A stretch of DNA of 64,000 nucleotides from Escherichia coli. Its GTDB lineage: Bacteria; Pseudomonadota; Gammaproteobacteria; Enterobacterales; Enterobacteriaceae. Every line of letters begins with the position of its first letter. Position 1 is the first letter of the stretch. Position numbers: made by a program. Location of the stretch: assembly GCF_050320075.1 (NCBI RefSeq), contig NZ_CP190018.1; one strand, 5' to 3'. Shown here piece after piece: positions 6,001-9,000 of this stretch.

Positions 6001-9000
6001 CCATAATAGATATTTCTTTATAGTTTTCATCTGATTCTGAGGCGATATGCCTGATAGTAACGTAAACCTGTCTGATGTTTATATCCCTTCTGTTTAGTTT
6101 AATTCTGTTAATTTTGGGGCGTGACATGAGTATCCATCGCCCCATAAAATAGCCTTTTTTTAAAGGTACATAAAATCTATTTTTATTCAATGCTTATAAA
6201 GCGCTAATAATCAATATTATGGTATTATATTCTGATAATGATTTGATAAGCGAATTCTTTTGCCGGATGGTATTTCTATTTCCACCCCATAATTTATAGT
6301 TTTTTCATCAGGTAGCGATCTCTTTAAATAAGGCGTGCGTGACATTTTTTTTGGGTTAAGTGTCTCGTATTGAAATACTTCGAATTGATATTCAGACATT
6401 TCTGCCCATGTTTGAATTTTATTGTATCGGGAGAGTGTCGTAAAGGCTTTAACTTGCTTATAACATTGTTTTTGGAATTCTTGCTGATATTTTAATATGT
6501 CATTGTATGAAAGATTGGTTATCCTGGCCTCTAAGAATTTAATTATTGTCGAAGCAATTTCCGCTTTTGCTCGTAAAAAGTTGTCATTAATGGTTAATAA
6601 TGTTGAAAATAAACCTTCGATTTGTTTGTCAAGATATTGTTCGTCTTTATATAATTTTGGGGTAGGGTGTTCTTTATGTGAAAAAATAGTGTCACCTAAA
6701 TTTGCGTCAGTGAAATTTATATTAAGTAGATCTTCGAAATAAAACCTTGACAAGGTTAGAACGAACCCGGACAGGTTCTGTCCTGTCATATTGAAATCAA
6801 TAAAGTTGGTTCCGGCAAAGACTTTCATCCTGTTTTTATTTTCACTGTGTTCAATATATAACTTCGTCATTTTTTGATACAGGCTTTGAATATCTTTTAT
6901 ATTAGTCGGTAAGTCAGCTCGTTGTTCAGCATTAAAATTAGTATCTGAAAACATGGTTTGGACACTGAATCTTACTGGTATTCCCTCTTCTACGCTAATT
7001 TTAGTTATGATTGCCTTGTCGGGTTTAGGATTAGCGACAACAATGATTCGACATTCAGAATTTTTATTCTTTTCGTATCTAATGTTATTAATCTGATTAA
7101 GTATTGATTGTGTCTGTTGCGTAAGTGGTGTCGAACTTATCGTTTCAATGTTATTAATAAGACTTACAAGTTGAGCCACAATTTTTGAGTAGTCTGCATT
7201 TGTATATGTAGTGTTCGTGTGGCACGCATTAATTTGTTGAAGTTGGTGTTGCGCTAAATCATATTGATCAGAGGTATATCCTTCTCCAGAGAATGTGGAA
7301 TTAATGGGTTGTTGTTCTTCCCAATTATCGCAAGGCCACTTCGGTGTATCTGGCGTTTTAGCATTATCGGTATTTGTTGTGCAGTTATAAATATCGCCGT
7401 GATATGTATTTATTATACCTGGGGTAAAGTCAATTGACATAAAATTCCTTATTCATCATTTGTTTTATGCTAAGATGTTTAAATTGGATAATTAGAACAG
7501 GAATGGATTTTCTTCTACACACAATAAATGTAATGCGTTATCTCTTCCTGATATAATTACCTTTGATTTCCCTTTTATCTCCACCCGGTAATATTTGTGT
7601 ATAAAAAAAGGGCAGTGATAGTATCGTAAAGGAAAACGTTAACAACTATCAAAAAGCGCTCATTTTAAAAAGTTATGATGTTCACCGATAGTGTGTGAAG
7701 TGATATTTTTGTGATGTTTTAGATGTGTAATAATGAACCAGGTTAAAGTGTATTTAAAAATGTGTTGTATTGGCGACTGAAATCTGCCCTTTAAAAGGGG
7801 GATAGCACTGAAACAAAGAGACATTGCTTCTCCGATAAAATGTCAGAGAAGCATGATTGCGTGGTGATTGTCGATTGATGACTTACTGACGGATCCGTCA
7901 TCATTCTCAAAGCATTAGTTAAGTTATTTGTGATTTTTAAGGATTATCCTATCTATGATTTTCTACTCAGAAGGATAAGGCACTCACAATGCTCCTTATA
8001 GTTTACTGCTGGCATCTATTTAAAATAGCATTTGAGTCAAATAGCCCATCAAGATAGCCATACCTAAGATAACCGTCAGGAATGCAGCTATCATCGGCAT
8101 TCTGAACATTGATTTAAGTAATATCACTTCCGTCAGGCTTGCTCCGGCACTGCCGATGATTAATGCCATTAATGCTCCCAGCCCCATTCCTTTTGTCATC
8201 AGAACAGATGCCAGAGGGATAACCGCCTCTGCCCGGATATACAGCGGAATTCCGACAACGGCGCTCAATGGGATGGCGAAGGGATTATCTGCCCCTGCAT
8301 GAGCGGCAATCCACTCTGAGGGAATAAAGCCATAAATAAAAGAGCCTATTAATACCCCTAACAAAAGATATGGCAGTACATCTTTAAACTGTTGCAACGC
8401 ATCTTTGGTGGCTAGTTTTATGGGATTAATACTTACCACAGCTTTGGTACTGCAACAGTTTACTACAGGTTTCTCAATGGCTTTAGCCGCTGGACTACAG
8501 CAACTCACTTTTATTGGCGTATATGTCGTCCCCGGCGAAGTTTTGGCTGGAGCACAACAATTTGCTGATGAGCTTTTACTGGCAATGATATGACGTTCAA
8601 ATCCCAGGGAATCCAGGATAATACTGGCAAGTACGGAGACGCCGGCGGCGATAATCGCGTACAACAAGGTAACTTTCCAGCCAAAGGTCACCCACATTAA
8701 CCCGACGATAATGGGATTAAGTAATGGGGAAACAAATAAAAAAGTGAGAGTCGGACCAAACCCGGCTTTCGCTGATAACAATCCACGTAACATGGGGATT
8801 GTCGAGCAACTACAGAACGGGGTAACGGCTCCCAACAGAGCAGCCAGGAGATAGCCTTTCCCTTTTCTTGCCCCCATCATCTGCTGGATTTTATGGTCTG
8901 GCACCTTTTGTCTTATCAGGCTGACACCGGCACTAATCACTATAAACAGCAAAGAAAGCTCGACGGCGAGAAACACAAACATCTCTGCGGCATCTTGCAG

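Follow-up and report, generated by a model that had tools for sequence, protein, structure and literature searches.

An intact yhiS allele of Escherichia coli carries a short pentapeptide-repeat segment in a divergent and repeatedly inactivated gene

In Escherichia coli K-12, yhiS (b3504, UniProt P37635) is a pseudogene, annotated in NC_000913.3 as two pieces (746 and 478 nt) separated by IS5T/insH11. The first-pass annotation of the DNA analysed here had mentioned such an IS5 disruption, and the reference sequence bears this out. The arsC/yhiS 'promoter island' of K-12 was H-NS-bound in all ChIP studies (PMC3661553 Table 1, 'A'); it was also predicted to be foreign by two methods, and yhiS was flagged by codon-usage methods (PMC3661553). 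In addition, K-12 yhiS has been described as a high-affinity StpA/H-NS site (bioRxiv 10.64898/2026.02.10.705075). All these H-NS data were obtained with the already disrupted copy of K-12. Overexpression of YdeO did not induce yhiS despite a nearby binding site (PMC4222967), and neither a K-12 yhiS deletion nor a clone had a phenotype in a chlorhexidine study (PMC8170033). In those parts of the literature on yhiS and Escherichia that were accessible to us, the gene appeared only as the pseudogene of K-12 or as a site of IS5 insertion or of H-NS/StpA binding; we found there no characterisation of the protein, and no partner, phenotype or expression of an intact allele.

The closest described proteins are those of the pentapeptide-repeat clan (PF00805; Rfr32 2f3l, QnrB1 2xtw, TL15 3n90), with which YhiS shares tandem F/L/M-centred pentads at exactly its core. 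In Qnr/MfpA the repeats extend over about 200 residues (about 40 pentads), whereas YhiS has 10 pentads in about 50 of its 407 residues and no detectable relative outside them. A further likeness is to EspX1 (ECs_0025), a 473-aa, Escherichia-restricted protein without a Sec signal, in which a degenerate pentapeptide segment (PF13599 E=0.0027, below the Pfam cut-off) lies within orphan sequence and whose alleles are 89-97% identical within E. coli. However, EspX1 has an ortholog in E. albertii, and no such ortholog of YhiS was found.

The window, a 64,000-nt stretch of E. coli contig NZ_CP190018.1, contains an uninterrupted copy of yhiS. The gene and its upstream neighbours are located as follows.

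6217..7440, minus strand: yhiS coding sequence, an ORF orthologous to K-12 b3504
8020-9033: ArsP_1-family permease gene, immediate upstream neighbour of yhiS
9129-9425: ArsR/SmtB regulator gene, divergent from the permease gene
9548-9973: arsC

On the minus strand the order is dctR, slp, yhiS, (permease, ArsR-like), arsC, arsB, matching K-12 and five other strains in the synteny between arsC and slp-dctR. The window thus shares with K-12 the locus arsC - yhiS - slp - dctR and a conserved upstream region, but in the window the permease and regulator genes separate arsC from yhiS and the chu haem genes lie past dctR, neither of which is the case in K-12. The gene had been described as flanked by slp and ars genes; this holds on the slp side, but the immediate upstream neighbour is the permease gene. 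The gene was already catalogued, and the intact copy is no discovery but an ordinary allele of a polymorphic locus.

The frame runs from 7440 to 6217 (ATG to TAA, 407 aa plus stop), with a ribosome-binding site (AAGGA, 7451-7447) 7-11 nt 5' of the ATG. An open frame of this length is beyond chance. At the composition of yhiS, the probability of meeting no stop in 407 codons was 6e-14; the remaining five frames of the same 1224 nt held 20-48 stops, and the longest stop-free run in 1000 dinucleotide-preserving shuffles averaged 81 codons (maximum, 168). Together with a dN/dS of 0.25-0.50 among five alleles, this establishes yhiS as a genuine protein-coding gene. Its product is a soluble 47-kDa protein (computed mass about 47.2 kDa, pI about 6.0), in which neither a Sec signal peptide nor a transmembrane segment was detected (maximum 19-residue Kyte-Doolittle hydropathy, 0.90).

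The gene lies in an AT-rich block, spanning about 5850 to 8100, which reaches through the slp promoter into the 5' part of slp itself. The G+C content was 33.7% in yhiS (GC3, 29.7%) and 33.5% in the 579 bp 5' of it (7441-8019), compared with 46.0% in slp, 51.6% in arsC, 54.4% in arsB and 49.0% in the whole window, confirming the earlier description of a complete 407-aa frame in an AT-rich block. The following features flank the gene.

7441..7757, minus strand: conserved AT-rich upstream region, 93-100% identical to K-12, corresponding to the H-NS-bound arsC/yhiS 'promoter island' (PMC3661553)
7652-7623, minus strand: promoter-like site upstream of yhiS, a consensus match only
7758..8019, minus strand: distal upstream region, present only in strains with the permease module
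7853-7825, minus strand: terminator-like hairpin downstream of the permease gene
7918-7915, minus strand: CTAA in the distal upstream region, site of an IS5 in the nearest relative
5972..6216, minus strand: yhiS-slp spacer, variable over the first ~90 bp 3' of yhiS

Promoter-like sites were not enriched over shuffles in the promoter scan (18 vs 14.1 +/- 3.7), and no terminator-like site was found in the spacer between yhiS and slp. An Rfam search over 5200-9600 returned nothing in or near yhiS, its sole match being a sub-threshold REP-like element at 9468-9506.

Known H-NS-silenced xenogeneic genes and 'promoter islands' resemble yhiS in several respects, including a G+C content 15 points below the surroundings, the published occupancy in K-12 and the attraction of insertion sequences (IS5 in the K-12 gene, IS5 upstream of the gene in the nearest relative, IS1 elsewhere). 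By analogy with the K-12 ortholog, H-NS/StpA would coat the AT-rich gene together with its upstream region, both of which are probably silent under ordinary culture conditions. For the H-NS silencing suggested earlier, binding to the K-12 counterpart is published, but the literature searched contained no report that loss of hns derepresses yhiS.

When the insertion sequence and one copy of its TTAG target duplication were excised from the K-12 sequence, an intact ORF of 1224 nt was restored, the same length as the window gene (97.1% nucleotide and 95.6% amino acid identity). The K-12 junctions read ...AAATTTAG, then IS5, then TTAGGTGAC..., and the target site lies inside the pentapeptide core of the window copy.

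6675..6825, minus strand: pentapeptide-repeat core of YhiS, residues 206-255, ten consecutive pentads
6696..6699, minus strand: TTAG (CTAA on the plus strand), target site of IS5T in K-12 yhiS, falling within the pentapeptide core at codon 249

YhiS had been described as having no recognisable motif, which must be revised, since residues 206-255 form a short pentapeptide-repeat segment. The centre residues of the pentads are F F M L L F L F L F, with an A(D/N)LXX-like consensus, and the residue preceding the centre is N or D in six of the last nine. A run of 10 pentads occurred in none of 20,000 shuffles of YhiS, the longest being 7. Although Pfam PF00805 matched 12 of 13 YhiS alleles, every match was below the cut-off (best E=0.037), and the window protein scored 10.6 bits against a gathering score of 20.2. 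Independent comparisons agreed with the assignment. All 13 matches in a PDB profile search were pentapeptide folds (best 2f3l, E=1.3e-4), and hhalign against bona fide pentapeptide proteins gave probabilities of 94% and 87%. When 1.84 billion representatives were searched exhaustively with an HMM, non-self matches covered residues ~204-277, and the ten of these run against Pfam were without exception pentapeptide proteins. The segment is therefore below the Pfam cut-off but supported by its periodicity and by the PDB and profile comparisons, and the pentapeptide region also had the lowest dN/dS in the protein (0.19-0.25).

In structure prediction, AlphaFold2 gave no confident model. Both the full protein (13 alleles; mean pLDDT 34.6) and residues 170-305 (9 alleles; mean pLDDT 53.5) were predicted as low-confidence helices with no beta-solenoid. 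Judging from their number, the repeats would fold into a right-handed beta-solenoid of about 2.5 turns, with a conserved helix before it and helical regions after it. By analogy with the short pentapeptide modules of EspX and PipB2, YhiS may act as a partner-binding scaffold or adaptor. The repeat segment is much too short for a DNA mimic of the Qnr/MfpA type, and the NCBIfam Qnr models gave no match to YhiS at E<=1.

No search placed YhiS in a characterised family: nothing in Pfam, NCBIfam, PADLOC or PHROGs exceeded its threshold. A match to some part of yhiS was recovered from 5416 of 5426 complete E. coli genomes, always at the same site, at a median of one place per genome and never on a plasmid. 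Even the most divergent allele was syntenic. All named database matches were from E. coli or Shigella, and the exhaustive HMM search recovered a single full-length YhiS representative, the other matches being YhiS fragments or generic pentapeptide proteins. A scan of species-representative genomes, which used two peptide patterns only and by itself is weak evidence of absence, gave one match, a low-coverage contig of 409 bp that bears the label Ensifer; being 95% identical to yhiS of E. coli, it was treated as contamination. No copy was found in the phage collection or on true plasmids, three matches in the plasmid collection being mislabelled chromosomes of 4.8-4.9 Mb. The YhiS family is thus found only in E. 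coli and Shigella, where the gene has one fixed chromosomal position, between ars and slp, and occurs in a single copy.

A horizontal origin, also proposed earlier, is plausible on compositional grounds. The compositional signal was confirmed, but no donor lineage or mobile vehicle was found in any collection searched, and xenogeneic islands are patchy whereas yhiS is not. Because part of the gene occupies the same site in nearly all genomes, any acquisition would predate the diversification of the species.

Comparison among strains revealed that yhiS is a mosaic divergence island, a finding that is new here, and that it ranks among the most divergent and most recombining segments of an otherwise conserved neighbourhood. 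Synonymous divergence (dS) was 0.07-0.63 in yhiS, compared with 0.02-0.04 in the adjacent slp. Five alleles differed by up to 36% at the protein level, all with 407-410 open codons. Between K-12 and strain 20KM2300, arsB was identical and yhiS differed by 13.5%. Along the gene, identity between alleles changed in abrupt steps. The variable block stopped sharply near 6130, from where the slp promoter and gene were 99-100% identical among strains. Constraint was uneven along the protein, being strongest at residues 1-36 and 177-300 (dN/dS 0.19-0.28 across the latter). The ends (residues 1-20 and 371-407) were conserved, residues 41-80 and 301-370 varied fast, and dN/dS reached 0.7-0.8 at residues 57-96 and 317-376. 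No 40-codon window had a dN/dS above 1, giving no sign of positive selection at that scale.

The gene has also been inactivated repeatedly, by IS5, by IS1, by homopolymer frameshifts and by a B2-type deletion, which is likewise new here. One of the homopolymers involved is the following.

6345..6352, minus strand: A8 homopolymer, gene nt 1089-1096, codons 363-366

In O157:H7, loss of 1 nt in this tract yields a 371-aa product without the conserved C-terminus. Further frameshifts were seen at two additional homopolymer tracts, although some homopolymer frameshifts may be long-read assembly errors. B2-type strains, including UM146 and an O2:K1:H5 APEC, both putatively of phylogroup B2, have a large deletion that leaves the first ~380 nt, and IS1 insertions were found in the yhiS block of other strains. 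Full-length in-frame yhiS is kept in roughly 45% of complete genomes, and copies of 1224 nt were present in 18 genomes of an evenly spaced sample of 40. Frequent loss, together with dN/dS of 0.7-0.8 in two segments, would also be expected of a gene drifting to decay. The data presented here show yhiS to be conditionally useful and dispensable, with deep mosaic allele classes spread by homologous recombination.

Taking these results together, we consider it reasonably likely, at a probability of roughly 65%, that YhiS is a genuine soluble, pentapeptide-bearing protein confined to E. coli and Shigella, probably silenced by H-NS/StpA, dispensable, and with a predicted role as a scaffold or adaptor.

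An unlikely alternative is that YhiS is a secreted effector like EspX or PipB2, exported by a type III secretion system (ETT2 or LEE) through its conserved N-terminus and using the pentapeptide module to bind a host protein. The allelic diversity and the repeated loss would then both reflect pressure from the host. The make-up of YhiS is EspX1-like, being AT-rich, Escherichia-restricted and without a Sec signal, with a short pentapeptide segment below the Pfam cut-off, and BLASTP aligned two weak collinear segments (YhiS 233-257 with EspX1 324-349, and 268-324 with 390-447; E=0.054-0.11). At the profile level, however, homology to EspX1 was ruled out, as hhalign against EspX1 and against an EspX1 alignment gave probabilities of 1-2%; NCBIfam had no match, and no effector was among the PDB matches. 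The first 20 residues are conserved, polar and leucine-free, but this composition mirrors that of the T/N/I-rich whole protein. ETT2 is reported absent from phylogroup B2, to which strains with the large deletion, such as UM146 and the O2:K1:H5 APEC, would belong. Nevertheless, yhiS is not linked to any secretion locus.

More speculative still is a broader proposal, in which YhiS would serve in conflict or interaction specific to the species, whether as a secreted, effector-like protein or within the cell against phages or competitors. It would be built on a minimal pentapeptide beta-solenoid, its deep, recombining allele classes would be maintained by balancing or frequency-dependent selection, and homopolymers and IS targets would serve as on/off switches. 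If true, a core position of the E. coli chromosome would encode an undescribed functional class.

In a narrower form, which we regard as distinctly improbable, yhiS would be an intracellular conflict gene, a single-gene anti-phage or anti-competitor factor whose alleles are kept diverse by an arms race and which is lost when costly. Conflict genes usually combine the features seen in yhiS, namely deep mosaic alleles, loss in many strains, occurrence in a single species, a high AT content and binding by H-NS. However, PHROGs and PADLOC had no match for YhiS, and in PADLOC-DB no family matched any of three divergent alleles at E<=1. The gene also sits at a fixed site among ars and acid-resistance genes and not in a variable defence island, and an arms race sits poorly with the complete lack of 40-codon windows in which dN/dS exceeded 1.

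That yhiS is a functionless, silenced relic decaying neutrally, its divergence reflecting relaxed constraint in untranscribed H-NS-coated DNA, is very doubtful: the low proportion of full-length in-frame copies, the many independent lesions, a dN/dS 3-10 times that of the flanking genes with the 0.7-0.8 peaks at residues 57-96 and 317-376, and the lack of a phenotype for the K-12 deletion and clone (PMC8170033) would all agree with it, but five alleles at dS 0.2-0.6 keep 407-410 open codons where stops would be expected at 7% of codons, the overall dN/dS remains well under 1, with values of 0.19-0.28 across residues 177-300, and neutral decay leaves the 13.5% difference beside identical flanks in K-12 and 20KM2300 unexplained.

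The additions made here to what was known of yhiS, a short pentapeptide motif and unusually variable, often-inactivated alleles, are modest. They concern an uncharacterised 'y-gene' whose reference copy in K-12 is broken, and can guide the choice of strain and allele for a divergent gene that is specific to E. coli and Shigella, intact in about half of natural isolates and equipped with a pentapeptide module. More generally, yhiS offers a compact case for the persistence, diversification and loss of H-NS-coated, species-restricted genes.

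yhiS is a real gene, and its best-supported reading is that of a gene for a soluble protein, selectively maintained but, in this strain, presumably silenced. The ORF occupies window 7440→6217 on the − strand, with an ATG start, 407 codons and a TAA stop, confirming the complete frame reported in the first-pass annotation; AAGGA lies 7-11 nt 5' of the start codon. Its length is far beyond chance. At the composition of yhiS, 7.2% of codons should be stops, which gives 407 open codons a probability of 6e-14. Over 1000 dinucleotide-preserving shuffles, the longest open run had a mean of 81 codons and a maximum of 168, compared with 407 in yhiS, and the remaining five frames of the gene carry 20-48 stops. 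The G+C content was 33.7% in yhiS (GC3 29.7%) and 33.5% in the 579-bp upstream region, against 46.0% in slp, 51.6% in arsC, 54.4% in arsB and 49.0% in the whole window, which bears out the claim that the gene and its upstream region are more AT-rich than their neighbours. The surrounding features are:

4722-5252, − strand: dctR
true start at 5971, − strand: slp (the 261-aa ORF first called is an extension upstream of that start)
8020-9033, − strand: ArsP_1-family permease, 337 aa (PF03773, E=5.7e-53)
9129-9425, + strand: ArsR/SmtB regulator, 98 aa, divergent from the permease gene
9548-9973, − strand: arsC, with arsB next

Both chuS and chuA were found on the far side of dctR. The gene had been described as flanked by slp and ars; slp is indeed adjacent, but the position immediately upstream is held by the permease and ArsR-like pair instead of the ars operon. 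This pair (8020-9425), which separates yhiS from arsC, is absent from K-12, from O157:H7 and from the strain whose yhiS allele diverges most, and may provide accessory metal or organoarsenical efflux beside arsRBC. At 9468-9506, in the gap separating the ArsR-like gene from arsC, both strands gave a sub-threshold match to Rfam naRNA4 (REP-like) that scored 29.7 bits, the gathering score being 59.5.

As stated in the first-pass annotation, the K-12 counterpart is disrupted by IS5: MG1655 yhiS (b3504) is a RefSeq pseudogene in two pieces of 746 and 478 nt around IS5T/insH11. The target, TTAG, corresponds to window 6699-6696, at codon 249. Once the IS and one copy of the target were taken out, an intact 1224-nt ORF was restored, 97.1% identical to the window at the nucleotide level and 95.6% at the amino acid level. 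We compared five alleles, comprising the window, this reconstituted K-12 gene and three natural isolates, one of which has a protein just 64% identical. All five have 407-410 open codons despite dS values of 0.07-0.63, and pairwise dN/dS ranged from 0.25 to 0.50. Values were low at residues 1-36 (0.23) and 177-300 (0.19-0.28) and high at residues 57-96 and 317-376 (0.7-0.8), with no 40-codon window along yhiS above 1. The best-conserved stretches were residues 1-20, 171-200, 211-250, 271-300 and 371-407.

Inactivated copies are common among other strains. We took an evenly spaced, systematic sample of 40 complete genomes, in which 18 copies had a length of exactly 1224 nt, another 11 had full coverage but lengths of 1223, 1225 or 1226 nt, three were K-12-type splits and eight were large deletions or IS1 cases. 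The 18 of 40 suggest that ~45% of complete genomes carry a full-length, in-frame yhiS, an estimate based on length in which nonsense mutations are uncounted. In O157:H7, loss of 1 nt at an A8 tract (window 6352-6345) gives a 371-aa product, and other lineages (comparison loci L010-L013) show +2 in an A-tract at nt ~368 or −1 in a T-tract at nt ~756-762. All of these small frameshifts fall within A or T homopolymer tracts, and they could stem from slipped-strand on/off switching, from hot spots of mutation or from errors in long-read assembly. Strains such as A37 have a deletion sparing just the first ~380 nt of yhiS, and only fragments of the region remain in UM146 and one O2:K1:H5 APEC. At the A37 locus (L008, NZ_CP029327.1, 3961-5378), arsR and arsB are gone along with the deleted part of yhiS, and arsC carries a frameshift; the entire ars-yhiS interval is degraded there. 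Pure neutral decay of yhiS is contradicted by the open frames and dN/dS of the deep alleles.

Insertion sequences account for further lesions, namely IS1 in other strains and IS5 in K-12. The closest complete genome, NZ_CP195442.1, matches window 678-14099 except for one IS1 and one IS5, the latter at CTAA (window 7918-7915), 475 bp upstream of yhiS. Since IS5 has entered the AT-rich block in both K-12 and NZ_CP195442.1, and IS1 in other strains, this block is a recurrent IS target. The IS1 of NZ_CP195442.1 lies between chuS and dctR (~4695-4703) and matches the window's own IS1 copy at ~24617-25365.

Divergence of yhiS is sharply localized. The Slp protein (WP_001057453.1) is identical in all strains fetched except K-12, where one residue differs, and slp dS is 0.02-0.04, whereas YhiS differs by 4-36% between strains. 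Slp and its promoter (window 5405-6130) are 99-100% identical among strains and adjoin a variable block running from ~7800 to ~6130, which ends abruptly at the slp promoter. Between K-12 and 20KM2300, arsB is 100% identical and arsC and dctR are 99.8% identical, yet yhiS differs at 13.5% of nucleotides (dS 0.28); replacement of the yhiS allele by recombination is therefore required. Within the gene, allele pairs alternate between ~99% and ~85% identity, indicating that the alleles are mosaics. Its dN/dS is 3-10 times that of the flanking genes.

At least part of yhiS was present in 5416 of 5426 complete E. coli genomes, always on the chromosome and typically once per genome (median one place); even the 64%-identical allele retains the arsC-yhiS-slp context. 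Searches of 5.8 billion protein clusters with window YhiS and the most divergent allele returned solely E. coli and Shigella proteins, and an exhaustive search at 50% clustering contained a single full-length representative. Hence yhiS is restricted in its taxonomic range and occupies one fixed position in the core chromosome; it is no recent island acquisition. When one genome of each bacterial species was scanned for YhiS patterns, the single match was a 409-bp, 0.77x-coverage contig of 'Ensifer sp. MPMI2T' (NZ_SRXN01000179.1) encoding the last 93 residues at 95% identity to E. coli; this contig almost certainly entered the assembly as contaminating E. coli DNA. No copy was found in the phage collection, and the three PLSDB matches (NZ_CP141089.1, NZ_CP134663.1 and NZ_OL790696.1; 4.8-4.9 Mb) are yhiS-bearing E. 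coli chromosomes misfiled as plasmids. The proposed horizontal origin draws only on composition and on codon-usage predictions that call the K-12 region 'foreign' (PMC3661553 Table 1); no donor was visible in the collections searched.

In K-12, every ChIP study taken into account by PMC3661553 found H-NS on a 470-bp 'promoter island' at arsC/yhiS; the paper lists another island at insH11/slp. A 2026 preprint places yhiS among loci of high StpA/H-NS affinity (bioRxiv 10.64898/2026.02.10.705075). As window 7441-7757 and the corresponding upstream region of K-12 share 93-100% identity, H-NS binding upstream of yhiS here can reasonably be inferred. Overexpression of YdeO left yhiS unchanged although a YdeO site is nearby (PMC4222967), and no paper in the literature searched measured directly whether loss of hns derepresses yhiS.

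YhiS is a protein of ~47.2 kDa with a pI near 6.0. Its maximum 19-residue hydropathy is 0.90, with no hydrophobic segment and hence no Sec signal or membrane span. Pfam and NCBIfam scans gave no match above threshold, so no characterised family was clearly matched. The claim that the product has no recognisable motif was, however, too strong, because evidence for pentapeptide repeats recurred, weakly, at residues ~205-255, a module that includes the K-12 IS5 site. From residue 206, ten consecutive pentads have F/L/M centres, with N or D before the centre in six of the last nine; such a run occurred in none of 20,000 protein shuffles (maximum 7). PF00805 was matched by 12 of 13 alleles, always below the cut-off. 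A PDB profile search with residues 170-305 returned 13 sequences at E<=10, all with pentapeptide-repeat folds, including Rfr32 (2f3l, E=1.3e-4), designed beta-solenoids, TL15, QnrB1 and the SV2 luminal domain. Comparison by hhalign with two bona fide pentapeptide proteins gave probabilities of 94% and 87%. In the exhaustive search, which covered 1.84 billion cluster representatives, non-self matches aligned to residues ~204-277, and all ten that were Pfam-scanned were multi-repeat pentapeptide proteins. Two AlphaFold2 models, built on an alignment almost without depth, were helical and of low confidence (pLDDT 34.6 and 53.5) and gave no confirmation of a beta-solenoid. YhiS thus comprises a short pentapeptide module and ~350 further residues of orphan sequence.

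The repeat, the constraint pattern and the absence of export signals are observed; in the best-supported reading, a minimal pentapeptide beta-solenoid of ~2.5 turns would form the functional core, with a conserved helix as its cap and helical regions beyond, and YhiS would act through partner binding. DNA mimicry of the Qnr/MfpA type would need far more than ten repeats, and neither PADLOC nor the genomic context supported a role in defence. The most specific analogy is with EspX/PipB2-type effector-like proteins. EspX1 of O157 Sakai is built along the same lines as YhiS and also has a sub-threshold pentapeptide match, but profile comparison with YhiS gave 1-2% and no homology, making this a resemblance and not membership.

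The gene, its IS5 disruption in K-12, H-NS binding and 'foreign' composition are already on record, and intact copies are annotated as 'hypothetical protein' in the other E. coli genomes examined; finding an intact yhiS is correct but ordinary. Absent from the literature searched were the pentapeptide module, the confinement of yhiS strictly to E. coli and Shigella, its mosaic hyper-divergence beside an slp that hardly varies, and its repeated, independent inactivation. These features reveal no new kind of system and give yhiS slightly above-average interest among uncharacterised genes.
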